In this document: one piece after another, positions 1-19,950 of the stretch | Layout: every line of letters begins with the position of its first letter | Position numbering within the stretch: the first letter of the stretch is position 1 | DNA from: an uncultured virus (IMG/VR IMGVR_UViG_3300009159_000038) | Taxonomy: Duplodnaviria > Heunggongvirae > Uroviricota > Caudoviricetes | Virus record (IMG/VR): IMGVR_UViG_3300009159_000038 | Span: 1-64,000 of that record | Direction: 5' to 3' (one strand) | Length of the DNA: 64,000 nt | Program-made: the position numbers and the translations under genes | Notes under the pieces: model-generated | Seen by the model: only the letters and a program-made list of their open reading frames with translations | The model's database searches: none | Told to the model about the DNA's origin: nothing

Positions 1-696
1 ACCTTGAAAACCAGTAGCACCTTGAAAACCTAATCCACTTGGACCTTGAATACCTTGAAGACCAGTAGTTCCAATTGTACCTTGATATCCTTGAAAACCT
101 AATCCACTTGGACCTTGAATACCTTGAAGACCAGTAGTTCCAATTGTACCTTGATATCCTTGAGCGCCTAATCCACTCGGACCTTGAATACCCTGAGCAC
201 CAGTAGTTCCAGAAGCTCCAGCACCTTGATATCCTTGAAAACCTAATCCACTCGGACCTTGAATACCTTGAATACCAGTAGTTCCGGAAGGTCCGGCAAT
301 ACCATCTGGACCTTGACGTCCTTGTCGACCTTGATTACCAGTTAAACCGATAGGTCCTTGTAAACCTTGAAGTCCAGTACCTACAGAACCTTGATATCCT
401 TGATCTCCTTTAGCTCCTTGAACACCAGATCCTTGATTACCTTGATAACCCTGATCACCTTTAGCACCTTGATAACCTTGATAACCCTGAGATCCTTTAG
501 CTCCTTGTACACCTTGATAACCTTGAGATCCTATACCTGGACCTTGTACCCCTTGAAATCCAGTAGCTCCTTGAAAACCTAATCCACTTGGACCTTGCGA
601 TCCAGTTAAGCCTTCCGAACCAGTCGAACCTTGAAATCCTTGAAATCCAAGTTCAACAAGTAATCCATTTTGTGGGGATCTTGTACCTATTGCCAT
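1..696 (-). CDS. Collagen-like (G-X-Q) fibre protein, runs off the window start
   Basis: ATG at 696-694; reads MAIGTRSPQNGLLVELGFQGFQGSTG... then G-x-Q triplets to base 1; absent from the ORF track because it has no stop in the window. Confidence 0.9.
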   Translation of the reverse strand, partial: MAIGTRSPQNGLLVELGFQGFQGSTGSEGLTGSQGPSGLGFQGATGFQGVQGPGIGSQGYQGVQGAKGSQGYQGYQGAKGDQGYQGNQGSGVQGAKGDQGYQGSVGTGLQGLQGPIGLTGNQGRQGRQGPDGIAGPSGTTGIQGIQGPSGLGFQGYQGAGASGTTGAQGIQGPSGLGAQGYQGTIGTTGLQGIQGPSGLGFQGYQGTIGTTGLQGIQGPSGLGFQGATGFQG

Positions 697-801
697 TGTT
701 AATATACTTTGATATTTTATTATCTATCTCCGGATAAAGAGTTGTTTTTTCGTGGGATGAAAGAAATTTTTATTTGTTTTTATGTGAGAACTGGGTAATA
801 A

Positions 802-860
802 TGTTAATAACTTTTTGTGCTAAAATTTTTTTATACCAACCTTTTTTATTATATTTGTAT
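802..860 (+). promoter_or_regulatory. Putative early (host sigma) promoter, copy 1
   Basis: TGTTAATAACTT at 802 and TATATTTG at 850-857 (Bacteroidota -7 TAnnTTTG), upstream of ATG 883. Confidence 0.65.
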
Positions 861-882
861 ATACAATTTAAAACATATACAT

Positions 883-1413
883 ATGACACAATTACAATGT
901 ACAAGGTTTTCTTTAATAAAGAATACCAAGCCATTAGGCACCGAAGATTTGCTAACAGTTTTAAACGAAATTGCATCTGACAAATACAAAGTTCAAATCG
1001 AAGAAATTCGTAAAGCCGAAAATCCTTCAAAATCTCCTTTGAAAGATAAACTTCCATTATTTACACCGACCGGTATCTTCTCTCATCGTTCAATGGCCGG
1101 ACTAGAATCTTACAATGGTATTATATGCCTCGATATTGATGGTGTATCAAATCCACAAGAACTAAAAGAAAAAGCAAAAACATTACATTGGGTATATGCT
1201 GCTTTTATTACTCCTTCTGGCCAAGGACTTAAAGTTCTAGTAAAAACTAATGCAACTTCCGAAACCTACAAACAAACCGAAATTCTGGTTGCCGAAGCAT
1301 TTTTTAATATAACCGGTTCATCTCGAGATAATCACTGCAAAGATATTGCAAGAATTCAATTCGTTTCACACGATCCAGATATTTACATTAACGAACATTC
1401 TGTAACATTTTAA
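883..1413 (+). CDS. VirE N-terminal (BT4734/BF3469-like) domain protein
   Basis: KLPLFTPTGIF..R, GIICLDID, FITPSGQGLKVLV, D.HCKDIARIQFVSHDP motifs; start moved to the ATG after the promoter. Confidence 0.8.
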   Translation: MTQLQCTRFSLIKNTKPLGTEDLLTVLNEIASDKYKVQIEEIRKAENPSKSPLKDKLPLFTPTGIFSHRSMAGLESYNGIICLDIDGVSNPQELKEKAKTLHWVYAAFITPSGQGLKVLVKTNATSETYKQTEILVAEAFFNITGSSRDNHCKDIARIQFVSHDPDIYINEHSVTF

Positions 1414-1456
1414 TTAATCAAATCAATAGAAAACATCATATAAAATAAAACACAAT

Positions 1457-1750
1457 ATGTATACCGAATCTACATTAGATCCTGCTGCTAAATCAGTATT
1501 GGAACACTTAAAATCAAATTGCGAAGAAGAAATTAAGATGATTGAAGATTGTATTAAGCTACGTCTTCATATGTCAAATGGTCTTACATCGAAAGAAAGA
1601 GAACAAAATCTTTTTGATCCATTTCAACTACAACTAGTTATTCATGATACTTATGATTTAGAAATGCATGCATATGACGTTGGTGCATGGGAAACGCAAA
1701 AACAAACATTAGATACAATTAATCAATTATTAGAATATGAAGTCGAATAA
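1457..1750 (+). CDS. Hypothetical protein
   Basis: ATG with A-rich leader, overlaps next gene. Confidence 0.7.
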   Translation: MYTESTLDPAAKSVLEHLKSNCEEEIKMIEDCIKLRLHMSNGLTSKEREQNLFDPFQLQLVIHDTYDLEMHAYDVGAWETQKQTLDTINQLLEYEVE

Positions 1751-2228
1751 ATCAAGAATTATACTATGCGGTAAAGCTGCATCAGGAAAAGATCATCTTC
1801 GAAAAATCCTCGAAGGTCGCGGTTTTAAGTATGGTGTATCTTATACTACTCGTCCACCACGTCAAGGAGAAATTGATGGTAAAGATTATTTCTTTTTAGA
1901 AGAATCTGAATTTAACGATCTAATCGAACAAAATTTCTTCTATGAATATGTAACCTTTAATGGTTGGTTCTATGGAACATCAAAAGATCAATGGTATAAC
2001 ACCGATGATATATTCATTATGACTCCTTCAGGTATTCGCAAGCTACATGCAGCCGATAGAAAATCTTCGTTTATCATTTGTATTGATATTCCTAGAGAAA
2101 CCAGAAAAGCTAGATTAACTGAAAGAAATGATACGGCAGATTCTATTGATCGTCGATTAGATGCAGATGATCGAGATTTTGAAGGATTTAACGATTTTGA
2201 TATCGTAATCAACAATGAAAATTTTTAA
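1737..2228 (+). CDS. gmk: Guanylate kinase-like protein
   Basis: GKAASGKD P-loop, SYTTRPPRQGEIDGKDYFF, FNGWFYGT. Confidence 0.9.
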   Translation: MKSNKSRIILCGKAASGKDHLRKILEGRGFKYGVSYTTRPPRQGEIDGKDYFFLEESEFNDLIEQNFFYEYVTFNGWFYGTSKDQWYNTDDIFIMTPSGIRKLHAADRKSSFIICIDIPRETRKARLTERNDTADSIDRRLDADDRDFEGFNDFDIVINNENF

Positions 2229-2232
2229 ATAT

Positions 2233-2664
2233 ATGGAAAAGAAATCAAAAAAACCAAGTTGGAACGAAATTATACATCGTCCACAATTACCAGAAGGATG
2301 GAGTGTTATCGAACAACAAACATCTCTTAAATGTTCAACCACCAATTTTGTTAGATGGGGAAAAACTCATCATAATGGACAACCTGAAAGAATTTGGGTA
2401 GTATTAGTGGAACATAATCCTGAATATTACGCTGTACCTTTCGTTGTTCGAGGAGGATTACATGCTAAAGGTCCTTCAGGATTAAGTTACTTTCAAGACA
2501 TTAAATCAGCAACAGAATGCTTGGTTATTATTATGGAAGCTACTGATCGTTGGATTGAAGAAATCAACTCAGAGAAATATATCAAAGCTTACAATGATAA
2601 AATTGAAGCTGCGATTAAAGCTGACGAAAAACGAAGAAAGGATTCATCCGAACTTTATGCATAA
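2233..2664 (+). CDS. Hypothetical protein
   Basis: ORF in operon, ATG just after gmk stop. Confidence 0.7.
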   Translation: MEKKSKKPSWNEIIHRPQLPEGWSVIEQQTSLKCSTTNFVRWGKTHHNGQPERIWVVLVEHNPEYYAVPFVVRGGLHAKGPSGLSYFQDIKSATECLVIIMEATDRWIEEINSEKYIKAYNDKIEAAIKADEKRRKDSSELYA

Positions 2665-3106
2665 TTATTTAGTAGTATCTCAGAGTGGAGATTTTGGCTT
2701 AAACAAGCAATTAGCTCTAAAGGTAATGAGTATATTGAAGATGGAACATGGAAAAGATTCTGTCTATATAAATGCATCTGGCTTTACTAAAGCGGATTAT
2801 GCATTTAATAAGATTATATTCATTATTCCTGAATGGAATGGAACATATCCATATCTATTCAAACAAATCATCGATAATTCAGAATGGCCTTCTCTTTTAG
2901 ATAAAAAGAAAGTTCTGCTTATTGGTACATCAAATGGTAAATTTGGTAATGTTATGGGAGTCAATCACTTTGAGTATACTCTTAATTATGTCGGTTCTTC
3001 CGTCTTTACGAAGAAGGTTTATGTACCTAAATTAACAGAAAATATAGAAAACGAAGAGTATATAGGTTATCTAAAAGATGTACTATTAGAGTTCCATTTA
3101 GCATAA
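2657..3106 (+). CDS. NAD(P)H-dependent FMN reductase-like flavoprotein
   Basis: IIPEWNGTYPYLFKQIID resembles PEYNGS.P..LK..ID; KKVLLIGTSNGKFG; N-terminal FMN-phosphate loop divergent. Confidence 0.7.
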   Translation: MHNYLVVSQSGDFGLNKQLALKVMSILKMEHGKDSVYINASGFTKADYAFNKIIFIIPEWNGTYPYLFKQIIDNSEWPSLLDKKKVLLIGTSNGKFGNVMGVNHFEYTLNYVGSSVFTKKVYVPKLTENIENEEYIGYLKDVLLEFHLA

Positions 3107-3109
3107 AAA

Positions 3110-3176
3110 TGTTAATAACTTTCCGAAAATAAATGTCAAAAAAGTTTTTTATTCCACAAAAAAGTATTATATTTGT
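3110..3176 (+). promoter_or_regulatory. Putative early promoter, copy 2
   Basis: TGTTAATAACTT at 3110, TATATTTG at 3168-3175; near-identical to 21494-21560. Confidence 0.75.
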
Positions 3177-3196
3177 ATATACAAAATAATCAAATA

Positions 3197-5095
3197 ATGA
3201 ACATACGAGAAAAAGAAAATTTATACCTTTTAGCCAAAACTAAATATTACGAAGGTGAACCTATTCTATCCGATTTCGAATTCGATAATCTCGAAGATGA
3301 ATTAAAGCTAGAAAATTCTCAAGTAATTAAAATTGTAGGTTCTCAAGATCTAAAGGATATTAAGTTTAATCACGTATCTCCTATGCTTTCGTTAAACAAA
3401 ATTCAAGTTCAACGAAACGAATCAATCACTGTTGCTAATACTAAATATCTTACATGGTTAACTGCCAATCAAAGTAATACTTCCTTACAAATGGAAGCTA
3501 CTCCTAAATTCGATGGTTCTTCTTGTAATTTGATTTACGAAAATGGTAAACTAACTCTCGCATTAACTCGTGGTGATGGTGCTAAAGGCCAAAATATTAT
3601 TGAAAAAATGAAATTGATTGTACCTAATACAATCTCTTCAAAAGATAAAATCGAAATTCGAGGTGAAGTGGTTATTCCAGTAACTACGTTCGATTCTAAA
3701 TATGCCGCAATATATAAAAATCCACGAAACTTCGTTGCTGGTATTCTAGGTAGGGATATCGTCGATACCTCAATTATTTCAGATTTTCATTTTATAGCAT
3801 TCGAATGCAGAATTCATACAAACACATCTCAACACCATTCAAACACTCTACAATTCTTAATCGATAATCAATTCAGAACTACACCAAAAATGATTATGTT
3901 CGATAAATTCGAATATGCTTATAATGAAATACATAATTATCGAACAAACGGTTCACCTTACCAATTAGATGGTATGGTTATTAAATTCCCAGAAAATTTA
4001 AGAAATGTAATTGGCGAAACCGATTATGCACCTAAATGGGCAGTAGCAATTAAATTTCCTCCAAAGGAATCTATTACCACAATCAAAAAAATTATATGGA
4101 ACGTTGGTATATCTTCTGAATTTACACCAGTTGCAGTACTCGATCCAATCGATTTAGATGGAACTATCGTTTCAAATGTTAATCTTCATAATTATGGTAA
4201 TGTAATACGTCAAGGTTTACTTCCAGGTGCTCAAGTAATTATCGTAAAATCTGGTGATATCATTCCTATCGTTCAAAAAGTTATTAAACCTTCTACTGAA
4301 TCTATCGAAAAATATCTACCTTCTCCGTGTTCTTCTCAATGTAAAATTGAAGTACAAGGTAATATTCACTTAGTATGTACAAATCCTACATGTCCTAACA
4401 AATCAATTCTACAATTAATGCGAGGAATTGGTACCTTCGGTTTTCGAAATGTAGCCGGATCTACGATTAAGAAAATTCACAAAGCAGGTATACAATCAAT
4501 ACATGATATATTCGATAATTCTAAATTCAACGAACAAAAACTAATTGAAAGTGGCGAATTTAAAAAAGGAAGATCGCTAGAAATTCTTCTTAATTCTCGA
4601 AATAATCCAGAAAGAAAAATAACGCTTCCCCTGGTTATTGCATCGTTATCCTTCGATAACGTTGGATTTTCTACTGCTACACAAATAGCTAAGTTATTCG
4701 AAAACAAAACACCTGATTGGACCGGATTATCATCTGCATCTTATTTACCTTTCTTAAATAAACAATCTACTGAATATCTATCAGTTCTTCGCTTAATACA
4801 AACTCTAGAATCTAATGGATTTGCAATACAAAGCGAAGAAGTTCGTACAATTTCAGTAAATTCAATTATCTTTGAAATGACCGGATCACCAAAACCTTAT
4901 GGATTTAAAACCAAGGAAGATTTCTTAAAGTTAATTACCAACAATGGTTATTCTCATGGTGATCTTAATGATAAATGCAAAATATTAATTACTGACGATA
5001 TCAATTCAAATTCATCTAAAATGACAAAAGCTAAAAAGTTAGGTGTTGAAATCATGACTTATGAAGATATTCTTAATAAAATCAAGAATATATAA
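3197..5095 (+). CDS. ligA: NAD-dependent DNA ligase
   Basis: YY.GEPILSD.EFD, PKFDG adenylation motif, TRGDG, EIRGEV, NPRN, DGMVIK, KSGDIIP, Cys Zn finger, C-terminal BRCT (SSKMTKAKKLGV). Confidence 0.96.
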   Translation: MNIREKENLYLLAKTKYYEGEPILSDFEFDNLEDELKLENSQVIKIVGSQDLKDIKFNHVSPMLSLNKIQVQRNESITVANTKYLTWLTANQSNTSLQMEATPKFDGSSCNLIYENGKLTLALTRGDGAKGQNIIEKMKLIVPNTISSKDKIEIRGEVVIPVTTFDSKYAAIYKNPRNFVAGILGRDIVDTSIISDFHFIAFECRIHTNTSQHHSNTLQFLIDNQFRTTPKMIMFDKFEYAYNEIHNYRTNGSPYQLDGMVIKFPENLRNVIGETDYAPKWAVAIKFPPKESITTIKKIIWNVGISSEFTPVAVLDPIDLDGTIVSNVNLHNYGNVIRQGLLPGAQVIIVKSGDIIPIVQKVIKPSTESIEKYLPSPCSSQCKIEVQGNIHLVCTNPTCPNKSILQLMRGIGTFGFRNVAGSTIKKIHKAGIQSIHDIFDNSKFNEQKLIESGEFKKGRSLEILLNSRNNPERKITLPLVIASLSFDNVGFSTATQIAKLFENKTPDWTGLSSASYLPFLNKQSTEYLSVLRLIQTLESNGFAIQSEEVRTISVNSIIFEMTGSPKPYGFKTKEDFLKLITNNGYSHGDLNDKCKILITDDINSNSSKMTKAKKLGVEIMTYEDILNKIKNI

Positions 5096-5103
5096 CTAAC
5101 AAC

Positions 5104-5445
5104 ATGAACAAGCTACCTACATATCAAGAGTTCTTAAATGAATCATTAGTTATCCTTTCTTTGAAAGGTATAATGAAGAATGAATTTATGAACAATATAG
5201 AACTTAAGCAAGAGTTCGAAACCGCTAGAAGATTATTCTTCGACAATGGTTCATGTTTATTCGATCACATTGAAGGCGATCGATTTACGCTAAGAACGCA
5301 TTCTACATTCGAAACTTCGGATATGGATGCACTCATTACAAAGATCAACGACGAAATTGAAAGGTTTTCTTTCAAGAGAGTCGGTCCGGCTAAAAAGAAT
5401 ATCATTAAAGAAAATCTTTGGTCTCTTAAAGCCAAACTTAATTGA
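5104..5445 (+). CDS. Putative internal head protein with capsid-targeting-like leader
   Basis: N-terminus MNKLPTYQEFLNES resembles T4 IP leader MKTYQEFIAE; AATATATA upstream. Confidence 0.6.
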   Translation: MNKLPTYQEFLNESLVILSLKGIMKNEFMNNIELKQEFETARRLFFDNGSCLFDHIEGDRFTLRTHSTFETSDMDALITKINDEIERFSFKRVGPAKKNIIKENLWSLKAKLN

Positions 5446-5493
5446 TACTTTTTAATCATTTCATTCATTTAATTATTATTAATCCCACAAAAC

Positions 5494-6204
5494 ATGACAA
5501 AATACTTTAAGTATTCTGACTTTGAGCAAGCGTTTCTTTGCATTAATGGCGAAATAATTACCAATCCTGAATATCGTTCAACTTCTCGATTAGGTGATAT
5601 GTTAGAAATTCAAAGTCTTACATATGAAGTTGCAGATCCAACAACATATAAATTCACAAACGAAAACATCGGCAGATTAAATTACGATTATGCAGATACA
5701 TTTTATCAATGGATGATATCTGGATCTACTGATAATGAAGCACTTCTTAAAGATTATCCTAATGTTGCAAGATTCATGGAAAAACCTAAATCTCCTGATC
5801 TTCCAGCAAATTTCAATACATTCTATGGTCCTCGTATTCTAGAACAACTACCTCACGTTATCAAAGAACTTAAAGATCATCCTGATACTCGTCGAGCAGT
5901 AATTTCTATCCTTGATAAAAGTGATGTACTTCTTCTCGATAAACCAAATGAAACTCTTGAATTTCCTTGTTGTGATTCTGCAACATTCTCTATTCGTGAA
6001 GGTAAGCTGAATATTCACTTACATATGCGTTCACAAAATATAGGTCAAGTACTTAAGCTGGATATGTATCTATGGGGTAGATTTCAAACGCAAATTGCTG
6101 AAGAATTAGGTTTACCTGTTGGTAGATTCGTTTCAACTGTAGTTTCTGCTCATGTATTCGAAAAAGATATTGCTTACTTAAATGACTTAATTATTAATTC
6201 GTAA
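5494..6204 (+). CDS. Thymidylate synthase-fold dCMP-modifying enzyme (gp42-like, atypical)
   Basis: YGPRI, DTRRAVISI, catalytic PC, MRSQN...D (Asp at the N177-equivalent), SAHVF. Confidence 0.85.
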   Translation: MTKYFKYSDFEQAFLCINGEIITNPEYRSTSRLGDMLEIQSLTYEVADPTTYKFTNENIGRLNYDYADTFYQWMISGSTDNEALLKDYPNVARFMEKPKSPDLPANFNTFYGPRILEQLPHVIKELKDHPDTRRAVISILDKSDVLLLDKPNETLEFPCCDSATFSIREGKLNIHLHMRSQNIGQVLKLDMYLWGRFQTQIAEELGLPVGRFVSTVVSAHVFEKDIAYLNDLIINS

Positions 6205-6214
6205 ATCCAAACAA

Positions 6215-7531
6215 ATGAAAGATAAAAAACTCCAAGTATTCTATGCAGTTCAAGTATCAAACTTTACATTAGTAAATGGCAAACCTAAATGGTTATTGCG
6301 AAATGATGCATGCACTAACATTGCAATCGGAATCATCTCTACGGTTTTAAAGAGATATCCTGATCAATTCAAATTTTTAATTAAACTTCCTTCTGCTTAT
6401 GATACAGTAGATGTGGTTCAATTAGAAGATCTATTTAAACCAGAATTTCATAAAGATATCGAATTTCTTATTGATGATATCCCTCATTCTCCAGTAACTA
6501 GTCGCTATCATTTCGATATGCAACGATATCTCGTTCATCCTGAATATGCAAAAGCTTTCAGCGAAGTAGATCTTATGATTAATGATGAAAATACATTAAC
6601 GAAGAATTGGCGAGTACTTTTCAATGAAATGAAATTAACCATCCCAATCATTTCTACGAATTATTTCCTCGATTCACCTATCGCAAATAAAGTTCCAGAA
6701 AAACTTCGTTATTATGAACGTCAAATGGAATCTTTTATTACATCGGATATTGCTGCATTTCAATGCGAAGCTGGCAGAGTCGAAGCTATGGAAGCTTATG
6801 ATGTTTTATTTAAGACTCGTGAGATTCTAGCTCCTCAATCCGTATGGGGTGTTGGTGCACATTATGCCGAAATCGAAGAATATCATACAGATAAAAAATT
6901 CGAGATACCTACAATTTACTTTGGCAATCGTATTTCGGATACTGCAAATCGTTATACTAATTATGATACATTCGCCGAAGCAATTGGTATTCTATCGACT
7001 ATCACCGATAAACCATTTCGAGCAGTAATGCTTAATCCAACTCGTAAAGTTACTGCCGATCAATTGAATTTAATTGCAGATCTATCTAAACATCAAGTTG
7101 AAGTAATGTCTAACGATGAAAAATTCACTCGTCAAGATTATCTAACATTCATCAACAAATCTCATATTGCTTGTAACCTATTCGTCACCGAAGTTCATGG
7201 TGGTGTTACTCATTGTGAAGCAATGATGGCTAAGAATATTTTGGTAATGCCTAAAGTAAATAATTACTGGCACAAAATGAAAAAGGCTGGTCATGAAGAT
7301 TATCCTCTATTCACTGCACTCGATTCAACGAATTCTCATAAACCAGATGCTCGTGATGTAGCAGAAAAATTGAAGATTGCTCTTAATTATATAGATACTC
7401 CTATAGAAAATCAATTAAGAGAATTATGTCATAATGTCGGTTATAAATACGAATCTTACGAATCTGCTTGTGATCGTATCGTAAATGATATACGTTCGCT
7501 TGTTCTTCCTATCTTGAATAATAAAAACTAA
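6215..7531 (+). CDS. GT-B glycosyltransferase (GT4/alpha-GT-like)
   Basis: YFGNRISD and EVHGGVTHCEAMMAKNILVMP nucleotide-sugar-binding segment; adjacent to the TS-fold gene. Confidence 0.7.
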   Translation: MKDKKLQVFYAVQVSNFTLVNGKPKWLLRNDACTNIAIGIISTVLKRYPDQFKFLIKLPSAYDTVDVVQLEDLFKPEFHKDIEFLIDDIPHSPVTSRYHFDMQRYLVHPEYAKAFSEVDLMINDENTLTKNWRVLFNEMKLTIPIISTNYFLDSPIANKVPEKLRYYERQMESFITSDIAAFQCEAGRVEAMEAYDVLFKTREILAPQSVWGVGAHYAEIEEYHTDKKFEIPTIYFGNRISDTANRYTNYDTFAEAIGILSTITDKPFRAVMLNPTRKVTADQLNLIADLSKHQVEVMSNDEKFTRQDYLTFINKSHIACNLFVTEVHGGVTHCEAMMAKNILVMPKVNNYWHKMKKAGHEDYPLFTALDSTNSHKPDARDVAEKLKIALNYIDTPIENQLRELCHNVGYKYESYESACDRIVNDIRSLVLPILNNKN

Positions 7532-7540
7532 TTAACAATT

Positions 7541-7575
7541 TGACGAGGAGTAATCATTTGGTTACTCCTTTGTCA
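7541..7575. other. Intergenic stem-loop
   Basis: TGACGAGGAGTAATC-ATTT-GGTTACTCCTTTGTCA imperfect inverted repeat; no strong U-tract. Confidence 0.5.
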
Positions 7576-7591
7576 TATAATAATTAAACAT

Positions 7592-8146
7592 ATGGCAAAC
7601 TTAATTCTACTTGAAGGCTTATCCAGAACAGGCAAATCAACTATTTCAAAATCGATTGCTGATGAATTTGGATTTCGTAATTTCTCCATTAAGACTAAGA
7701 TGCCGGATTATGTACAAAATTTACCTGATTTTTATCATGGTATGCACGTTTTAGCAAATGAATTATTCAGATCTTTTCCCCATGAAACTTTCATCTTAGA
7801 TAGATCTTTTTTATCTGAGATGGTTTATTCTCAATTTTTTAACAGACATTCATATATAAATAACGATCAAGTCATTTGCGATTTACTTCTAGATAACAAG
7901 TTTATACTTGTACTTCTAGATAACAATCATCAAAATTATTTAGATCGTGGACCAAAAGATAAAATCACTTATTCTGAACAAGAATTTATTAAACAGAAAG
8001 ATCTTTTCCAATGGCACTTCCATAATTTCCGTGACAAATACGATCCACAATCATGGCGAGATAGATTTTTACACATTGATACATCAATCACAACTCTAGA
8101 AGATACAACAAAACAAATTAAAACAAAGATAAAACAAGTATTATGA
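7592..8146 (+). CDS. dNMP kinase (thymidylate kinase-like)
   Basis: LEGLSRTGKST P-loop, ILDRSFLSEMVYS. Confidence 0.8.
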   Translation: MANLILLEGLSRTGKSTISKSIADEFGFRNFSIKTKMPDYVQNLPDFYHGMHVLANELFRSFPHETFILDRSFLSEMVYSQFFNRHSYINNDQVICDLLLDNKFILVLLDNNHQNYLDRGPKDKITYSEQEFIKQKDLFQWHFHNFRDKYDPQSWRDRFLHIDTSITTLEDTTKQIKTKIKQVL

Positions 8147-9300
8147 AAAATAAAGCAGCGATAGTAACCGGTAGTTCAGGTCTTATTGGTTCGCAAACGG
8201 TTAAATCTCTTATTGAAAAGGGATATTATGTGATTGGCATTGATAATGATATGCGATCATATTTTTTCGGATCCGATGCATCTACTAAAGAATCTGAACA
8301 AAAAATGTTATCTGATTATGGTAGAGAAAAATTCAATCCTGTAAGTATCGATATTCGAGATTATGAAGGATTGGAATTCGTATTCAAATATCTAACAGAA
8401 AATATAACTACTCTTCTTGGAGAACCAGTTGAATTTGATTTTGATTTAGTTGTTCATACCGCAGCACAACCTTCACATGATTGGGCAGCTAAAGAACCTC
8501 TAACTGATTTTTCTGTTAATGCAATCGGTACCATGAATTTACTAGAATTAACTCGACTATATGCACCAAAAGCAACCTTCATCTTTACTTCGACTAACAA
8601 AGTTTATGGTGATACTCCTAATCGTTTGAATTTAGTTGAATTGGAAACTCGATATGAAGCAGTATCTAATCTTTCGAAAAATCTTATCGAGGTAGATGAA
8701 TTTATGTCAATCGACCATACTAAACATTCCATCTTCGGTGCATCTAAAGTTGCTGCTGATATTATGGTTCAAGAATATGGAAGATATTTTGGAATGAATA
8801 CCGTAGTATTTCGAGGTGGTTGTTTAACTGGACCTAATCATGCAGGTGCTGAACTTCATGGATTCTTATCTTACTTAATCAAATGTATTGTTAATAACAA
8901 ACCTTATACCATCTTTGGTTATAAAGGAAAACAAGTTCGAGATAACATTCATTCATCAGATCTAGTAAATATGTTCTGGCATTATCATCAAAATCCTATT
9001 CCAGGTGCAGTGTATAATGCAGGTGGTGGTCGAGAAAACAGCACATCTATTCTTGAAGCTATCGCAACCACAAATACTATTCTTAAAGAAGAAAATCCTG
9101 AACATAAAGATTGGAAGAATTTCAAAATCTCCAATGATGCTCGAATCGGTGACCATCAATGGTATATCTCAGATCTAACTAAATTTAAGACTGATTATCC
9201 ACAATGGCCTGGAATTACAATTTCATTAGATGAAACTATTCGTCAAATAATCAAATTTGAACAAACAAAAACAGCTGAAGTACTAAATGAAGCGAATTAA
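8143..9300 (+). CDS. NAD-dependent nucleotide-sugar epimerase (CDP-tyvelose/paratose 2-epimerase-like)
   Basis: TGSSGLIG, AAQPSHDWA, STNKVYG, HSIFGASK, GKQVRDNIH, RIGDHQWYISD. Confidence 0.9.
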   Translation: MKNKAAIVTGSSGLIGSQTVKSLIEKGYYVIGIDNDMRSYFFGSDASTKESEQKMLSDYGREKFNPVSIDIRDYEGLEFVFKYLTENITTLLGEPVEFDFDLVVHTAAQPSHDWAAKEPLTDFSVNAIGTMNLLELTRLYAPKATFIFTSTNKVYGDTPNRLNLVELETRYEAVSNLSKNLIEVDEFMSIDHTKHSIFGASKVAADIMVQEYGRYFGMNTVVFRGGCLTGPNHAGAELHGFLSYLIKCIVNNKPYTIFGYKGKQVRDNIHSSDLVNMFWHYHQNPIPGAVYNAGGGRENSTSILEAIATTNTILKEENPEHKDWKNFKISNDARIGDHQWYISDLTKFKTDYPQWPGITISLDETIRQIIKFEQTKTAEVLNEAN

Positions 9301-10555
9301 CATTGGCGTAATCATTTATACGAAGATTGGTACTAAAACTTCTATTCTTCTAGGAGAATTCGAGTTTTGGAACGATTTTCAACGAATGAACCCTGATTGT
9401 GACTTCTATTTTATATCAATATCGAAGAACACAACAAAGAGTATTATTGACCATCAACATCTACTTAACTTTCCAGTTAGGATGATACAGGTGTATGATG
9501 TGAAGGATCTTTCCAAGCTAAATAACCTTTCTGGGATATTTTCATATATGACTAGAAATACCTTCTTTGGAGGTCAAATGAATCCATCATGTGTTCATAA
9601 TTACGTGATATCTGCTTACTGTAGCAATACGCTAAACCTTCCTTTATTTATTAGAACTCCTGATTCAGAATATCCCTATTTGGATTATAAGAAAATGGCG
9701 GATGTTCGAATTGAGAAAGCTACACCAAGTACACCTAAATTCATTAGAGAAAATAAACGTTTTCTAGATGTTATGACTGCAGATATCAAATATGAAAATG
9801 TTTATTTTGTAGCCAATGGATCTCGTCATATGTGTGATTGGGTACAAGATATTGTATACCATGATATTCCAGATGTTATGAGAATAATGGAACCTAAAGA
9901 AATTTCTAGAAGAACTCTTTATGTTTCGGATGATGTTCTATTCAATCTTCATATTAATAGAGAGCGTTATGCAAATCTAAATGTTGAAGTAAAGAATAAT
10001 AAGCTTTTGTTTATTGGATTCCTTTCCGGATCAGTTGCAAAAAATCGTTTAGTTGCTTTAACTAAAATGTTGAAGGAAAAAACCGAAGAAATTCCTATGG
10101 ATATTATTGGACCTGGAGCAGATTTGTTGATAGAAGATATTATTCGTGAGGATGTTACTCTTGAAAACCGTTCAGTTTTTGGTGATGAATTTTTCAAGCT
10201 ACTTAATACATATTTAGCTTATGTGTTTATTGGTAAAGGTAATGCGATAAACAAATATGTAAACAAAACAATTTACGATTGTATATCTGCAAAATGTCCT
10301 ATTGTCGTTTACTCTGCATGTGATACTAATCAAGCTATTTTTAAGAGCAACGAATATTATTTCTCTAACGAATCCGAACTAAAAACAACCATGGATAAAT
10401 TAAGAGATCCTGCAATTCGTAATCGTTGGATCGATGAACAGAAAGCTGATATTGAAGAAAAATTAACACATAACGAAGAGATATTTAAGTTCTCTCAATT
10501 CTGTAAGCCTAAAGATCAAGTTGTTAATAACATTAGAATCGAGCCATTATTCTAA
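9287..10555 (+). CDS. T4 DNA beta-glucosyltransferase-like protein
   Basis: NTFFGGQMN vs T4 BGT NFFGGKPN; TPDSEYPY vs FTDIRLPF; C-terminal AYVFIGKGN..YFSNESEL..LRDPAIR colinear with BGT (reference recalled from memory). Confidence 0.75.
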   Translation: MKRINIGVIIYTKIGTKTSILLGEFEFWNDFQRMNPDCDFYFISISKNTTKSIIDHQHLLNFPVRMIQVYDVKDLSKLNNLSGIFSYMTRNTFFGGQMNPSCVHNYVISAYCSNTLNLPLFIRTPDSEYPYLDYKKMADVRIEKATPSTPKFIRENKRFLDVMTADIKYENVYFVANGSRHMCDWVQDIVYHDIPDVMRIMEPKEISRRTLYVSDDVLFNLHINRERYANLNVEVKNNKLLFIGFLSGSVAKNRLVALTKMLKEKTEEIPMDIIGPGADLLIEDIIREDVTLENRSVFGDEFFKLLNTYLAYVFIGKGNAINKYVNKTIYDCISAKCPIVVYSACDTNQAIFKSNEYYFSNESELKTTMDKLRDPAIRNRWIDEQKADIEEKLTHNEEIFKFSQFCKPKDQVVNNIRIEPLF

Positions 10556-10571
10556 TTCATAAAATAATAAA

Positions 10572-11186
10572 ATGAATATATTTGTACTAGATCAAGATCC
10601 GAGAATTGCTGCACAAATGCATTGTGACAAACATGTTCCAAAAATGATTATCGAACATGCGCAAATGATGACGGCTGCATATTATTCTACTTTAGGTATT
10701 AGCCGAAAGAAAGAAATTCCGGATCAACAATTTGTAGTAAATGAAATGTTTCGCGGTTGGCCTAGAAGAAATGCCGATGGAAGTGAATGGCATTATGCAA
10801 TATCACATGTCAATCATCCATGCACAATTTGGACACGAGCTTCAATCGAGAATTTTAATTGGTTACTAGATTGTACTGAAGAACTTTGTTACGAATTCAC
10901 TCGTCGTTGGGGTGGTAAACATTCAATCGAAAAGATCGTAGATTGGATGCGTCAAAATCCTCCTAAATTGCCTTCTTCTAAACAAACTCCTTTCGCAATG
11001 GCAATGCCGGATTGTTTTAGAACTACTAATCCGATTGAATCTTATCGTAGATACTATGGCATGAAAACAACTTACATGAAAGTAGCTTGGATTCGAGGAA
11101 CTCAACCGGATTGGTGGTCAGATCAATTTGCCAAAGATTGCGTTAATCAATATTATATTGCAAACCCAGCCTTGTTGGTTGGATAA
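10572..11186 (+). CDS. Pyrimidine-dimer DNA glycosylase/endonuclease V-like family protein
   Basis: MNIFVLD.DP..AAQMHCDKHV.KM..EHAQM, HVNHPCTIW.R, TPFAMAMPD, YRRYY. Confidence 0.8.
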   Translation: MNIFVLDQDPRIAAQMHCDKHVPKMIIEHAQMMTAAYYSTLGISRKKEIPDQQFVVNEMFRGWPRRNADGSEWHYAISHVNHPCTIWTRASIENFNWLLDCTEELCYEFTRRWGGKHSIEKIVDWMRQNPPKLPSSKQTPFAMAMPDCFRTTNPIESYRRYYGMKTTYMKVAWIRGTQPDWWSDQFAKDCVNQYYIANPALLVG

Positions 11187-11205
11187 ATAAAAAAAACCGA
11201 CACTA

Positions 11206-11811
11206 ATGCGTCTATTAACAAAAACCGAGTTTGATGCTCTTGTGCTTAATGAATCATATGATGATTACAAGAAAAGCATTAATGAAAATATCAAATATCA
11301 CATAGAAAATGAGCTAACTATATCTGAATCAATATTTAGAGTAGGATCTGAAGCTTATTTAGATTTCGTTAATGAAATGAGAGCACTTTGGAGAGATGGT
11401 AAAATATCAATATCCGAAGACGATCAATTTATTTTAGAAAAATTATATACTGGCCAAAAAGGAACTTATACCGACCGAGATACTGATCGAAAGAAAACTG
11501 TTAATTTTGATGATCCTCAATTATCTCCAAAGGAAATTGATACACTCTATTATGTTTATCGTCCATCTCCTTCAGGAGATAAAGATAAAGATACTGGTTT
11601 ACCAAAAGCTATCATGATTGGATTTGGTGAAAAAACTGGTCCTGGTGAAGATGATGTTAGAGATAAACATCAGGATCCAGGTAAACGTGCTGGATTTCTA
11701 GCTAGACAAAATTGCAAAGAGAAGAAAGATGAATATGCTTCTGGTTGGTGGTCATGTAACATACATAAATTCTGGAAACAACTAGGACTTAAAACAAACG
11801 ATCCATGGTAA
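11206..11811 (+). CDS. Conserved phage protein (DUF6321-like) with processed-leader-like N-terminus
   Basis: FLARQNC.EKKD...GWWSC C-terminal motif; leader EFDALVLNES and INE sites. Confidence 0.55.
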   Translation: MRLLTKTEFDALVLNESYDDYKKSINENIKYHIENELTISESIFRVGSEAYLDFVNEMRALWRDGKISISEDDQFILEKLYTGQKGTYTDRDTDRKKTVNFDDPQLSPKEIDTLYYVYRPSPSGDKDKDTGLPKAIMIGFGEKTGPGEDDVRDKHQDPGKRAGFLARQNCKEKKDEYASGWWSCNIHKFWKQLGLKTNDPW

Positions 11812-12134
11812 ATAAAGACTGTAATTGTAAGAATTGCGAATGCAAAGAAAGAGAATCTTTTTATCTAACATTCGAAGATTATAAACCTTTTACTGATAGT
11901 TATTTCAATGGATCTCTTGTTCGTAAATTTCCTAAAGAGACACCGGCTCATTTACTCAAATGGCATATAGACGATGAAGATCGTACAATATATCCGGTAG
12001 AAGAGAATGATTGGAAATTTCAATTTGATAATAAGTTACCTATCTCGTTTGATAGTAAAATTGAAATTCCTAAGGGAATTCAACATAGAATAATAAAAGG
12101 AACCACCGATCTAATCATCTTAATCGAAAAGTAA
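11805..12134 (+). CDS. Small cupin-like phage protein
   Basis: WHIDDEDR, WKFQFDNKLP, IPKGIQHRIIKG. Confidence 0.6.
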   Translation: MVNKDCNCKNCECKERESFYLTFEDYKPFTDSYFNGSLVRKFPKETPAHLLKWHIDDEDRTIYPVEENDWKFQFDNKLPISFDSKIEIPKGIQHRIIKGTTDLIILIEK

Positions 12135-12523
12135 TGGCTATTATACAACAAGAATTTCAACACGATCCATGGAAAATGCTTATAGGTTGCATCATGCTAA
12201 ATCAAACTAGCAATAAAAATGTACGCCAAGTAATATACGCATTCTTCGAGAAATGGCCAAATCCACTTTCCGTTTTACGAGCAAATCCAGATGATATTCG
12301 AGAACACATCAGACCTTTAGGATTCTATAATCGTAGAACTGCTACTATACAAAAATTCTCACAAGATTACATATCTAAATCTTTTAATCGAATAAGTGAA
12401 CTTCATGGCATTGGCAAATATGCCGAAGATTCATATGAAATCTTTATTCGCGGTAATGAAAATGTACAACCAACCGATAAGATATTGATTCGTTATCTTG
12501 CCGGTGAATTTATCGATCAATAA
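12134..12523 (+). CDS. MBD4-like HhH-GPD mismatch DNA glycosylase
   Basis: HDPWKMLIGCIMLNQTS, RPLGFYNRR, ELHGIGKYAEDSYEIF, PTDK match the MBD4 catalytic domain. Confidence 0.85.
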   Translation: MAIIQQEFQHDPWKMLIGCIMLNQTSNKNVRQVIYAFFEKWPNPLSVLRANPDDIREHIRPLGFYNRRTATIQKFSQDYISKSFNRISELHGIGKYAEDSYEIFIRGNENVQPTDKILIRYLAGEFIDQ

Positions 12524-12558
12524 CCGGAATATATAACTAGAAATAAATTCTTTGAATA

Positions 12559-13110
12559 ATGAATAAACATATACCTTCCTTCAATTCTTTCATAAATGAA
12601 GGAAAAGAAATTCCTATTGAAGTGACTAAAGGTCAAGCTGCCTATTATAAAGGTCTTCCTAAATCTACTGCTCAAAAGAAGAAATCTCAAATCACCGCAC
12701 AAGCAGAGAAACCTTCAGATGATCCTTCAGCATATAAAGCTTTACCTGGAGATAAAAAAGCTCAATCTAAAGGAATAGTTAAAACTTCATCTCATGTGAA
12801 AAAATACAAAGAGATGTTTGGTGAATCTGTTATTAATGAAAAAGAAGAGGAACTTAAAAAAGGACCTATCGAAAACCCAGATATTGAAAAAGCTTTAAAG
12901 AATAAGGTAGAAGAAACCGGAGTAGATTTAGATATACTTCGAGTAGTTATGCGAAGAGGAATGGCTGCTTGGAAAGCTGGTCATCGTCCAGGAGCTACTC
13001 AAGAACAATGGGGTTATGCAAGAATTGCTTCTTTTGTTACTAAAGGACCTACTTACAAATCAACTGACTCAGATATGGCTAAAATCGCAAGAGATAGAGG
13101 TCAATTATAA
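12559..13110 (+). CDS. DUF5824-like protein with capsid-targeting-like leader
   Basis: MNKHIPSFNSFINE leader; RRGMAAWKAGHRPGATQEQWGYARIASF. Confidence 0.65.
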   Translation: MNKHIPSFNSFINEGKEIPIEVTKGQAAYYKGLPKSTAQKKKSQITAQAEKPSDDPSAYKALPGDKKAQSKGIVKTSSHVKKYKEMFGESVINEKEEELKKGPIENPDIEKALKNKVEETGVDLDILRVVMRRGMAAWKAGHRPGATQEQWGYARIASFVTKGPTYKSTDSDMAKIARDRGQL

Positions 13111-13143
13111 CTCGAATATATAAAATAACAAAAAAATAGAACA

Positions 13144-13659
13144 ATGCAAAAATTCACCGAATTCGTAAAAGCCCGTGAAACTTCTATTGAAGAAAATGCT
13201 AAAGCAGAAATTGCCGCAAAATTCAATGAATTATACGAAGCAAAATTAAAAGAAATGGGAGCTAAATCTCCTTTAGATCTTACTGAAGAAGATTCTCAAG
13301 TTTTCTTTGAATACCTTAAGAGCTTAAAAGAAGCTGAATTAACTAAAGCTGACGTTAAGAAAGCCGTTAAAGCCGAGACTAAAGGTCTTGAGAAAAAAGT
13401 TGATGCTGCTGAAAAGAAAGCTGAAGCTGCCGAAGATACTGCTAAAGATGCAGAAAAAGATGCAAAGAAAGCTGGTCAAGATGAAGTTACCGATGAAAAA
13501 TCTTTCAGAGAGTATGCTACTAACCTACTTAAAACTGCACATCCTGATGATTTCGATGAGAAAATTGCTAACAAAGTAATTGATGGTATCATCGCTAAAG
13601 TTGAAGATGATAATTGGGGTGAGGCTATTGGCCGTTTAACTTCTGGTCTGGGAGGATAA
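13144..13659 (+). CDS. Putative internal head protein (charged, helical)
   Basis: MQKFTEFVKARE leader; K/E/A/D-rich. Confidence 0.55.
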   Translation: MQKFTEFVKARETSIEENAKAEIAAKFNELYEAKLKEMGAKSPLDLTEEDSQVFFEYLKSLKEAELTKADVKKAVKAETKGLEKKVDAAEKKAEAAEDTAKDAEKDAKKAGQDEVTDEKSFREYATNLLKTAHPDDFDEKIANKVIDGIIAKVEDDNWGEAIGRLTSGLGG

Positions 13660-13683
13660 TCAATAATATAAAACAAACACAAT

Positions 13684-14190
13684 ATGAAACATATTAAAAC
13701 ATTTGAAATCTTCGTTAATGAAGCAGTTAAATTCAATCCAAGAAATCTAGATCAAGGAACTTTCTTTGATTTTATCGATAGTATGGATGCAGAAACTATT
13801 GAAGATTATGGAGTTGAAATGGATAACATGACTAAAGGTTATGAAGCCGTTGCTAAAGAATTAGGTGGTAATTTAAAAAACGTTAGCTTTGGTGATTCAG
13901 AGAATAATGATTATGAATTTTTTAAATTCTTAATGAATGTTTCTTTAGGAAGCATGGCATTTGATAAAGGAGTTAAACTTCCTGAAGTAAAATCTTTAAA
14001 AACTTTTAATATTCCATCAGGTTGGAGAGACGGTGATAATCAAGCTACATTGGTAGAAATTCCAGGAGTAGCGAATTACGTTACTTGGTTAGATGGTGAT
14101 GATTTTTCTAATTTTGATTATTGTGCTTATAAATCTTCGGATCTTCCCAAGATTGCAAAATGGGCTCAAGAGAATTACGTAGAATCTTAA
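13684..14190 (+). CDS. Putative internal head protein
   Basis: MKHIKTFEIFVNEA leader. Confidence 0.6.
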   Translation: MKHIKTFEIFVNEAVKFNPRNLDQGTFFDFIDSMDAETIEDYGVEMDNMTKGYEAVAKELGGNLKNVSFGDSENNDYEFFKFLMNVSLGSMAFDKGVKLPEVKSLKTFNIPSGWRDGDNQATLVEIPGVANYVTWLDGDDFSNFDYCAYKSSDLPKIAKWAQENYVES

Positions 14191-14208
14191 TTCAATTATA
14201 ACTTATTA

Positions 14209-14254
14209 ACAAAGAAGGATTTGGACGCTATGCGACTGAATCCTTTTGTTTTTT
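14209..14254 (+). terminator. Probable intrinsic terminator
   Basis: AAGGATT...AATCCTT imperfect stem followed by TTGTTTTTT. Confidence 0.55.
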
Positions 14255-14296
14255 GATTTCATAATAATAATACGATAAATAGAAATAAATTAGCAT

Positions 14297-14902
14297 ATGC
14301 CTAAAACATTCATGAAATATCAGGATTTCGTTGATCCTAAAAGATCAGGGAAATATCAGAGCATCACGATATTTGATGTTGATGATACGTTAGTCGTAAC
14401 TAAATCTCAAATTAAAGTAATTGATACTAATACCAATAAGTCTTTTACTTTAACTCCGGCAGAATTTAATGAATTTGAAAAGAAATCTCATCATGAAATG
14501 GATTATTCAGATTTCAAAAACCTAGATATTCTAAAGGCCGGTAAAATTATAGAAAATATCTTCTCTATCCTTAAGAAAGAAATGCGTAAAGGCGGAAGAG
14601 TTGGTATTATCACTGCCAGAGACGATCGAAATCTAATCTATCAATTTCTACTTCATCATGGAGTAGTGGTTAATCCAAATTACATATTTGCAGTTAATGA
14701 TCCTGAACTTGAATTTACTGGAAGCGTAGCTGAAAAGAAAAAACAAGCCTTTATAGAATTAATAAAGATTGGATTTAGAGACTTTACATTTTATGACGAT
14801 GATGCTGAAAATATACGAATTGCTAAAGAGTTAGATGGTGAAATTGAAGGTATACATATTAAGACTAAACATGTAAAGGTAAGATGGAACAACAAAGACT
14901 GA
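14297..14902 (+). CDS. HAD-superfamily phosphatase
   Basis: FDVDDT (motif I), TAR (II), K (III), YDDD (IV). Confidence 0.8.
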   Translation: MPKTFMKYQDFVDPKRSGKYQSITIFDVDDTLVVTKSQIKVIDTNTNKSFTLTPAEFNEFEKKSHHEMDYSDFKNLDILKAGKIIENIFSILKKEMRKGGRVGIITARDDRNLIYQFLLHHGVVVNPNYIFAVNDPELEFTGSVAEKKKQAFIELIKIGFRDFTFYDDDAENIRIAKELDGEIEGIHIKTKHVKVRWNNKD

Positions 14903-15363
14903 TACACCGAAACGATCAAAAGATTGATACATTCGCAGAAATCGTTGAATCGATTGCTACTTTATCTGCCGCATCAACTAAGAAAGTTGCATGTATGGCT
15001 ATTCACAAAAATTTTATTAAGATTGCATCCTTTGGATATAATGGATCTTATGCTGGTGCTCCCATCAACGAAACAACTGGAACCGAAGAAGATTCGCTAG
15101 AACCTGGTAATTCAGGATTTATTCATGCAGAAGTTAACATGATTTCGAAATTTCGAGAACATGATCCTGAAAATTATATCGTTTTTCTTACGCTTTCTCC
15201 TTGCAAAATGTGCACTAAGATTCTAGTTAATTCTGGATTTAAAATGGTGTATTGGTTAGAAGATTATCGAGAACAAGAACATCTCACTATTTTCGATGAA
15301 TGTGGAATTCATTATGGTAATATAAACAAACTCAAAAAAGATTATTTCAAATTAGTAAAATGA
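14884..15363 (+). CDS. dCMP deaminase
   Basis: GYNG, HAEVN, TLSPCKMC. Confidence 0.9.
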   Translation: MEQQRLIHRNDQKIDTFAEIVESIATLSAASTKKVACMAIHKNFIKIASFGYNGSYAGAPINETTGTEEDSLEPGNSGFIHAEVNMISKFREHDPENYIVFLTLSPCKMCTKILVNSGFKMVYWLEDYREQEHLTIFDECGIHYGNINKLKKDYFKLVK

Positions 15364-15782
15364 AATATACTCTAACAATTCTAAAACCAGATGCAATATC
15401 TCGTGGAATAGAATCTAAAATCACCAAACACATAACCGATGCCGGTTTTCAAATTGCCGCTCGTAAAAGAATTCACCTAACAAATGAAGAGGCCTACGAT
15501 TTCTATGAGGTACACAAAGACAAACCTTTCTTTAGATCTCTTGTAGATTACATGACTTCTGGAGCTTGTGTATTTATGGTTCTTCGTAATGAGAATTCTC
15601 CTAATGCAATAGATCATTTTCGTAAGTTAATAGGATCTACCGATCCGGCTGAAGCAGAGGAAGGAACCATTCGTAAAATGTATGCAGAATCCCTAGAAAG
15701 AAACTCTATCCATGGATCTGATTCACCGGAATCAGTTATTAAGGAGTGTGATCTTATGTTTCCGGAATTATCGTTCAATTAA
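15360..15782 (+). CDS. ndk: Nucleoside diphosphate kinase
   Basis: LKPDA, FY.VHKDKPFF, GTIR, NSIHGSDS. Confidence 0.95.
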   Translation: MKYTLTILKPDAISRGIESKITKHITDAGFQIAARKRIHLTNEEAYDFYEVHKDKPFFRSLVDYMTSGACVFMVLRNENSPNAIDHFRKLIGSTDPAEAEEGTIRKMYAESLERNSIHGSDSPESVIKECDLMFPELSFN

Positions 15783-15794
15783 AATTAATAAATT

Positions 15795-18660: not shown

Positions 18661-18672
18661 TTAATATAAATA

Positions 18673-19935: not shown

Positions 19936-19950
19936 TAAATTTAAAACGAT

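Follow-up and report, generated by a model that had tools for sequence, protein, structure and literature searches.

The closest described relatives of the gene considered here are phage enzymes of the thymidylate synthase (TS) fold that hydroxylate deoxycytidine monophosphate (dCMP). According to Lee et al. (NAR 2026, PMC13326640), RB69 gp48 and gp80 of the Acinetobacter phage DLP3 convert dCMP to 5-hydroxy-dCMP (5hodCMP), with the oxygen of the product originating from O2, as traced by 18O2 labeling, and both proteins co-purify with a flavin resembling flavin mononucleotide (FMN). The residue given there as diagnostic of 5hodCMP synthases is Asn at the position of D169 (Escherichia coli ThyA numbering, used throughout for equivalent positions), and nine more D169N homologues, drawn from IMG/VR, from Shewanella phage Thanatos and from Rhizobium phage RL38JI of the Pootjesviridae, all made 5-hydroxydeoxycytidine (5hodC), whereas T4 gp42 gave 5-hydroxymethyldeoxycytidine (5hmdC) in the assay in which RB69 gp48 gave 5hodC. 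The same paper credits a crystal structure of the phage HY126 enzyme with flavin to He et al. (Nat Chem Biol 2026), and also cites Mahler et al. (2025). Here, we analyze an open reading frame (ORF) at positions 5494–6204 of a 64,000-nucleotide stretch (the window) of the uncultured virus record IMGVR_UViG_3300009159_000038, the 236-amino-acid (aa) product of which we assign, with high confidence, as a 5hodCMP synthase, that is, an enzyme that retains the TS fold but would have given up folate chemistry for flavin and O2.

The fold, the residue signature, the family placement and the gene neighborhood of this protein are all directly observed. It is matched by PF00303 (Thymidylat_synt; E 4.3e-13, 49.5 bits at a cut-off of 24.3) and by phrog_160, “thymidylate synthase” (E 1e-35), and a sequence search of the Protein Data Bank (PDB) returned 9iqu and 9iqc as the best matches (234–238 aa, E 2.5e-76), followed by MilA (6e-12) and by classical TS enzymes (1e-11 or weaker). 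We also built an AlphaFold2 model, using as input 52 metagenomic relatives with 62–91% identity to the protein (hereafter the 52-sequence alignment), which reached a predicted local distance difference test (pLDDT) score of 81.2 and a predicted TM-score (pTM) of 0.81. The best Foldseek match of this model is 9iqc, “Monooxygenase dependent on riboflavin with dCMP and FAD” (FAD, flavin adenine dinucleotide; query TM-score, TMq, 0.87; 52% identity), and the second is 9iqu, “phage HY126 dCMP hydroxylase-AfhB with substrate dCMP” (TMq 0.82). The TS fold is thus supported by the Pfam match as well as by the match of the model to TS-family structures.

Residues were mapped in ThyA numbering by MAFFT alignment with E. 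coli K-12 ThyA, T4 gp42 and RB69 gp48, as taken from annotated records. The original prediction for this ORF, made by eye, had proposed that the catalytic Cys is kept in an FPCC motif, that Asp stands at the N177 position, that D169 is replaced by Asn and E58 by the Phe preceding the conserved Trp (TFYQW), and that the HxY motif has become HVF, and the alignment bears out each of these assignments: C159 is equivalent to C146, D190 to N177 (also Asp in T4 gp42), N182 to D169, F70 to E58 and F222 to Y209, with T4 gp42 keeping Asp, Glu and Tyr, respectively, at the last three. In the protein itself, these motifs lie at residues 157–160 (FPCC), 188–190 (KLD), 179–182 (RSQN), 69–73 (TFYQW) and 220–222 (HVF). 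The remaining equivalences are W73 with W61, A92 with W80, E156 with L143, R179, S180 and Q181 with R166, S167 and C168, V186 with G173, and H220 with H207, and the phosphate and base ligands (R126/R127, R166, S167, Y94 and H207 of ThyA) are all retained. An acidic residue equivalent to E58 does not emerge from the alignment. D68, two positions before F70, was considered as a shifted substitute and rejected, as it is Asp in only 40 of the 52 relatives (Asn, Ser, Val or Gly in the rest) and hence not conserved. The further suggestion that the enzyme adds a group other than hydroxymethyl to C5, such as a hydroxyl, or uses a cofactor other than folate, is supported because homologues that share its residue signature (RB69 gp48 and AfhB) hydroxylate C5 with flavin and O2; this chemistry was, however, already published in 2025–2026, and the support for the present protein comes through homology.

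The relationship to the published enzymes is close, with RB69 gp48 and the 236-aa protein sharing 52% identity and an identical eight-position signature, FAECNVDF. Matches to the protein are found in 986 isolated-phage records, the best (53–54% identity) being those of Mosigviruses, the relatives of RB69, in which the homologue occupies the position of T4 gene 42, between DNA polymerase and uvsX, and stands beside genes for a SIS-domain protein and a nucleoside triphosphate (NTP) transferase. Across the 52-sequence alignment, E156, C159, R179, S180, Q181, N182, D190, H220 and F222 are invariant, and position 70 is Phe in 51 of the 52 sequences. With this alignment as query, 50 IMG/VR loci were retrieved, of which 48 yielded a TS ORF (the matches in L051 and L054 are cut by a contig end); these loci are not fully independent, since L006 duplicates the window and L008 is identical to L009. 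The equivalent of C159 is present in all 52 alignment relatives and in all 48 locus relatives, while Asn occupies the D169 position in 47 of the 48, and the E58 position is Phe in 46 and Tyr in one. The single exception, L055 (430 aa, 29% identity), keeps E58, W80, D169, G173 and Y209, as does T4 gp42.

A profile search of 1.84 billion cluster representatives widened this comparison to 4695 proteins at E ≤ 0.001 (1024 at ≤1e-10 and 46 at ≤1e-30), and residue co-variation was counted among the best 150 of the 4695. Whenever Glu is present at E58 in this set, Asp is present at D169 (35 of 35 rows), with Asp, Gly and Tyr at L143, G173 and Y209; conversely, none of the 81 rows with Asn at D169 has Glu at E58. 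A minority of rows lacks E58 and has Ser, Cys or Asp at D169 (eight, four and five rows, respectively, with Phe at E58, plus a few others). Loss of E58 therefore co-varies with D169N, and because some of the rows lacking E58 carry Ser, Cys or Asp at D169, it seems to be the more general mark of this branch. P0153, P0171 and P0144 are examples of such representatives, and under the published D169N rule these proteins would be overlooked or wrongly classified. We note separately that several hydroxylase-branch proteins are fused forms (P0123, P0124, P0125, P0128 and P0186), and that, among eight long forms scanned, a C-terminal histidine-phosphatase (His_Phos_1) domain is present in four and a MazG pyrophosphohydrolase domain in one.

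After removal of identical rows and of the truncated L049, 44 rows entered a maximum-likelihood tree, rooted at the midpoint only, in which the D169N proteins form one clade (support 99/95), within which the T4-like set that contains RB69 is a subclade of 33 rows (99/99). The 236-aa protein lies outside this subclade, together with L007, L008 and L010–L013, in an unresolved grade of the D169N clade, and the branches leading to ThyA and T4 gp42 are very long. This placement bears on the alternative that fares best, although we still regard it as improbable, namely, that the protein belongs to the D169N clade and uses a flavin, but makes a different C5 product or acts on a different nucleotide, such as cytidine monophosphate or deoxyuridine monophosphate. 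The position outside the RB69 subclade would allow for such a difference, as would the Ser, Cys or Asp found at D169 in the wider clade, which implies that the chemistry may vary, but all eight signature positions are the same as in RB69 gp48, and the nine diverse D169N homologues, from Pootjesviridae and IMG/VR among others, all made 5hodC according to PMC13326640. The protein has a Cys at the H147 position, which only three of the 47 D169N locus relatives share (one of them the duplicate L006), whereas the Asp at N177 is invariant in the 52-sequence alignment and in the locus relatives. Finally, the sugar genes beside the ORF are unlike the arabinose set, but its close relatives in L010 (59% identity) and L012 (66%) adjoin a SIS and NTP-transferase/kinase module of the arabinose type.

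It is less probable still, to the point of being very unlikely, that the protein works like T4 gp42, as a classical dCMP hydroxymethylase dependent on folate, in which case the phage DNA would carry 5-hydroxymethylcytosine. Several phage records, among them GenBank entries of Mosigviruses, do label homologues as “dCMP hydroxymethylase” or “deoxycytidylate 5-hydroxymethyltransferase”, and the TS fold, the catalytic Cys, the Asp at N177 and the acidic residue at L143 are common to the 236-aa protein and T4 gp42; precisely because both families have them, however, D190 and E156 do not discriminate between hydroxymethylase and hydroxylase. What does separate the two are E58, W80, D169 and G173, which T4 gp42 retains, as do all 35 representatives with Glu at E58 and Asp at D169, but which are replaced here. 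Identity to T4 gp42 is only 20%, T4 gp42 is absent from the best 60 PDB sequence matches of the protein, and RB69 gp48, with the same signature as the protein, makes 5hodC in an assay that gave 5hmdC with T4 gp42 (PMC13326640). The least probable alternative, a TS-fold protein that has no catalytic activity or only binds nucleotides, could account for the loss of several residues that classical TS cannot do without, but is hard to reconcile with a nucleophile and a full set of phosphate- and base-binding residues that are invariant across the 52 relatives, with the 284 of 544 candidate proteins that match at E ≤ 1e-10, or with the activity of homologues carrying the same substitutions (PMC13326640).

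Returning to the assignment as a 5hodCMP synthase, the chemistry is most likely that of RB69 gp48 and of AfhB from HY126, by analogy with which the following sequence of events can be proposed. The substrate dCMP would be held by R133/R134, R179, S180, Y111 and H220, with cytosine selected by D190, and attack of Cys159 on C6 would activate C5. A reduced-flavin/O2 species would then hydroxylate C5 from the site that methylene-tetrahydrofolate occupies in the classical enzymes, where the folate-handling residues have been exchanged (E58 for F70, W80 for A92, D169 for N182 and G173 for V186), after which departure of Cys159 would release 5hodCMP. The adjacent kinase and the nucleoside diphosphate kinase would raise 5hodCMP to the triphosphate, the phage polymerase would incorporate it, and the resulting 5-hydroxycytosine in DNA would be glycosylated by the GT-B protein encoded next to the TS gene, perhaps together with a 422-aa protein. 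As a weaker step, an FMN-reductase-like protein may regenerate the reduced flavin. We also suspect that a strongly conserved stretch of the enzyme, residues 97–115 (with K97, P98, L103, P104, N106–T109 and Y111–I115 invariant in the 52-sequence alignment), forms part of the flavin site; part of this stretch is inserted compared with ThyA and T4 gp42, and the stretch is modeled with low confidence.

The genes considered in this scheme are collected in Table 1. Those around the TS gene all lie on the + strand with short gaps or overlaps, and this tight packing, the adjoining GT-B fold protein and the kinase, nucleoside diphosphate kinase and dCMP deaminase genes nearby provide supporting context for the assignment.

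Table 1. Features of the window bearing on the predicted 5hodCMP synthase and its gene neighborhood.
Feature	Coordinates	Strand	Remarks
Guanylate kinase	1737–2228	+	
NAD(P)H-dependent FMN-reductase-like flavodoxin-fold protein	2657–3106	+	~149 aa; candidate reduced-flavin supplier
NAD-dependent DNA ligase	3173–5095	+	
Conserved protein directly upstream of the TS gene	5104–5445	+	113 aa
Predicted TS-fold 5-hydroxy-dCMP synthase (dCMP 5-hydroxylase; AfhB / RB69 gp48 family)	5494–6204	+	236 aa
GT-B (GT4-like) glycosyltransferase; candidate DNA 5-hydroxycytosine glycosyltransferase	6215–7531	+	438 aa; predicted structure
P-loop dNMP / thymidylate-kinase-like kinase; candidate 5hodCMP kinase	7592–8146	+	184 aa; phrog_761, E 1.6e-16
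Extended short-chain dehydrogenase/reductase (SDR) related to CDP-tyvelose 2-epimerase	8143–9300	+	385 aa; PF01370, E 6.9e-37
Possible second DNA glycosyltransferase	9287–10555	+	422 aa; orthologue in L013
MBD4-type HhH-GPD DNA glycosylase domain	12134–12523	+	129 aa; PF00730, E 2.3e-12
dCMP deaminase	14884–15363	+	phrog_174, E 3.5e-25; PF00383, E 5.8e-14
Nucleoside diphosphate kinase (last phosphorylation step)	15360–15782	+	PF00334, E 3.7e-46

Gene order is also conserved, in that the series guanylate kinase (Gmk), hypothetical ORF, FMN reductase, ligase, 113-aa protein, TS, GT-B, (second SDR), kinase and SDR is kept in L007, L008/L009 and L011, and partly in L013. The 113-aa protein has no Pfam or PHROG match and no similarity to RB69 gp49 by BLASTP, and in L007, L008/L009 and L011 its orthologue immediately precedes the TS gene. 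The 438-aa protein, an orthologue of which lies directly downstream of the TS gene in L007, L008, L011 and L013, likewise has no Pfam or PHROG match, and a PDB sequence search gave chance-level hits only. Its AlphaFold2 model (pLDDT 75.6, with low-confidence stretches at 150–211) nevertheless shows the two Rossmann domains of the GT-B fold, with Foldseek matches to sucrose-phosphate synthase, PglA, MshA, BshA and PimA (E 1e-12 to 1e-10, probability 1.00, TMq 0.44–0.63), and a lead from ESM features pointed to GT4 clusters. The 422-aa protein shows no similarity to the 438-aa protein by BLASTP, no Pfam or PHROG match, and PDB sequence hits at chance level only; ESM features give a lead to clusters of T4 beta-glucosyltransferase (0.95–0.96), but hhalign to that enzyme reaches a probability of only 8.6%. 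The 184-aa kinase matches PF02223 below the cut-off (E 0.0019), is weakly similar to the RB69p045 “thymidylate kinase” (27% over 85 aa, pairwise E 2e-4), and has a homologue in 10 of the 50 loci.

The 385-aa SDR is closest in the PDB to 9rl0 and 1orr, the CDP-tyvelose 2-epimerase (E 5e-31). In all five orthologues, including that of the window, the Tyr of the YxxxK motif is replaced by Phe (SIFGASK versus SPYGCSK) while the Lys is retained; the other four lie at L007:11594–12724, L008:10605–11750, L011:11729–12892 and L013:11422–12537, and L007 and L011 each encode a second SDR paralogue in which the catalytic Tyr is intact. In L010 and L012, by comparison, the genes downstream of the TS gene encode a 542–551-aa protein, a SIS-domain protein and an NTP-transferase/kinase protein, as in the arabinose type of RB69 and HY126. 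The sugar module has thus been swapped within the jumbo-phage lineage while the hydroxylase stays, and the phage of the window therefore probably decorates 5-hydroxycytosine with a sugar other than arabinose. Near the nucleotide-metabolism genes, we also observed a 329-aa protein (16986–17975, + strand) with a match to the STELLO glycosyltransferase family in its C-terminal third (PF03385, E 6.5e-11), which is a further candidate sugar-transfer enzyme.

We next consider the FMN-reductase-like protein as a possible source of reduced flavin. The ORF as called mechanically begins at a TTG at 2555, but since the homologues are 153–162 aa long, we place the start at the ATG at 2657. The protein passes the PF03358 cut-off of 24 narrowly (25.1 bits, E 1.4e-5), nearly all of its 107 relatives have a precomputed PF03358 match, and a profile of five sequences finds YieF, NADPH-FMN reductase and azoreductase in the PDB at E ~1e-7. 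The N-terminal flavin-phosphate loop is conserved in the five phage sequences, and the PDB profile alignments begin past it, at profile position 32–48. Eight of the 50 loci, exactly L006–L013, the nearest relatives of the 236-aa protein (the jumbo-phage group), encode a reductase homologue no more than 8 kb from the TS gene, and none of the T4-like loci among the 50 does. In L010, the reductase gene directly adjoins the TS gene, in divergent orientation, though the other flanking genes differ. No counterpart of the protein is encoded by RB69 or by three T4-like IMG/VR records (two of which are 93% complete or better), and a tblastn search of 50,697 isolated-phage records gave no match at E 0.001. 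Furthermore, an FMN_red domain was found in none of the eight longer cluster representatives scanned for a TS-reductase fusion, such that the link has no Rosetta-stone support. Whether this protein is a dedicated reductase for the hydroxylase is, in our judgment, about evenly balanced.

The 129-aa glycosylase matches MBD4 glycosylase domains in the PDB (E 3.7e-27), and its gene is conserved in L007 and L008/L009. In L052, the glycosylase gene (8758–9156) lies directly downstream of a D169N TS gene. Homologues occur in only 16 isolated-phage records, nine of which are Xanthomonas phages, and in one of these, Xp12 (L064:5914–6396), the glycosylase gene is two genes upstream of the TS homologue. 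The DNA of Xp12 contains 5-methylcytosine in place of cytosine, and we take the TS homologue of Xp12-type phages to be the cytosine-methylating enzyme. By analogy, the MBD4-like glycosylase may remove deamination products of C5-modified cytosine, such as deaminated 5-hydroxycytosine.

Several observations weigh against these readings and temper the confidence with which they can be held. For the enzyme itself, the nearest assayed homologue is only 52% identical, loops 95–109 and 151–156 of the model fall below a pLDDT of 50, and the flavin is named differently from source to source, as “FMN or related” in PMC13326640 and as “riboflavin” and “FAD” in the title of 9iqc. For the downstream steps, hhalign detects no similarity between the GT-B family and the Mosigvirus transferase beside gp48 (probability 0.1%). 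A T4 gp56-type dCTPase was not found in the 134-kb and 254-kb records described below, in a search that had no positive control and covered two incomplete records, so full replacement of cytosine is only a possibility. In the case of the reductase, the profile match to solved FMN reductases spans positions 46–135 only, leaving the N-terminal loop uncovered, and the link to the hydroxylase consists of co-location in related genomes that are largely syntenic, a pattern for which common descent would suffice. Taking these points into account, the joint reading, in which a two-component flavin monooxygenase with a phage reductase is combined with a non-arabinose sugar handled by the Tyr-less SDR and with MBD4-like removal of deaminated 5-hydroxycytosine, is tentative, and we consider it doubtful that all of its parts hold at once.

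The source record is a 133,957-base virus contig, estimated to be 47% complete, with one TS homologue. A 254,393-base IMG/VR record encodes, over its first 14,181 bases, 18 ORF products all identical to those of the window (18 of 18), and megablast of window positions 1–20000 against isolated phages gave no match. The phage is a distantly T4-like jumbo phage of ~254 kb: its genome encodes gp32-, gp41-, gp44-, gp46/47-, gp55- and UvsX-like proteins of the T4 type, as well as a portal, prohead protease, major capsid protein, terminase, sheath and tube, and its family B DNA polymerase is found in two ORFs ~4 kb apart (G000 79565–80965, phrog_2062, and 85023–86231, phrog_1918), with ribonucleotide reductase genes between them. 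The capsid protein is closest to those of an uncultured 462-kb phage (54%) and of the Prevotella Lak phages (40%), and is also close to those of phages of Tenacibaculum, Chryseobacterium and Flavobacterium. As its closest relatives are thus huge phages and phages of Bacteroidota, a Bacteroidota host is likely. Among other genes, we note a trimeric-dUTPase-family protein at G000 78832–79323 (PF00692, E 2e-15), collagen-like tail-fiber proteins at window positions 1–696 (− strand) and 18673–19935 (+ strand) that match many PHROG tail-fiber families (E to 1e-62), and very large ORFs of the baseplate/tail region at 47841–55808 (+ strand), 37311–41396 and 44035–47763, the products of which (2655, 1361 and 1242 aa) match only PHROGs of unknown function.

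Our analysis thus places the protein in the 5hodCMP synthase family as a new member from a jumbo phage, and would extend the folate-to-flavin/O2 switch of this TS branch, a discovery of 2025–2026, to uncultured jumbo phages, probably of Bacteroidota. As the hydroxylase chemistry itself is published, what is new here is mildly so: the flavin-reductase-like gene carried by the phage, the sugar module that departs from the arabinose type and contains an unusual SDR, and the MBD4-like glycosylase. Many database records still label 5hodCMP synthases as thymidylate synthase or dCMP hydroxymethylase, and for annotators, the loss of E58 (with W80 and G173) that tracks D169N offers a second, independent marker, which also flags the E58-less sequences with Ser, Cys or Asp at D169. 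The reductase, in turn, provides a testable lead on how the hydroxylase obtains reduced flavin, and the swapped sugar module on how many different glycans are placed on 5-hydroxycytosine.

Compared with known systems, the protein resembles T4 gp42 in its TS fold, its Cys nucleophile, the Asp at N177 and the acidic residue at L143, as well as in its role as the first step of a cytosine-replacement pathway, but the folate-dependent T4 enzyme keeps E58, W80, D169, G173 and Y209 where Phe, Ala, Asn, Val and Phe are found here. MilA, the cytidine monophosphate 5-hydroxymethylase of mildiomycin biosynthesis (PDB 5jnh and 5b6d), is the next-best match after AfhB (TMq 0.79) and is likewise cytosine-specific, but it is folate-dependent, keeps the acidic residues, is longer (318–342 aa) and is only 24–25% identical. 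The synthase of the Rhizobium phage RL38JI type (Pootjesviridae), associated with hexosylated 5-hydroxycytosine, provides a non-arabinose case of glycosylated 5-hydroxycytosine. The homologue of the related Rhizobium phage RHph_I1_9, aligned in its stead, shares D169N, N177D, L143E and E58F with the 236-aa protein, but differs from it in its lower identity (34%), its insertions and the Tyr kept at Y209. By far the closest likeness is to AfhB, RB69 gp48 and DLP3 gp80 (PDB 9iqc, 9iqu and 9ir2). Unlike the RB69-type phages, the phage of the window lacks the SIS/NTP-transferase arabinose module and is a distantly T4-like jumbo phage; it has no counterpart, in either its 134 or its 254 kb, of the U32-peptidase-like gene of the RB69 cluster, and carries an FMN-reductase-like gene that RB69 does not have, while its synthase has Trp at W61 where the RB69 subclade has Phe. 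The enzymes themselves, however, agree in fold, in length (234–238 aa, at 52–53% identity) and in the residues at E58, W80, L143, C146, D169, G173, N177 and Y209, and in each case a glycosyltransferase and a kinase adjoin the gene.

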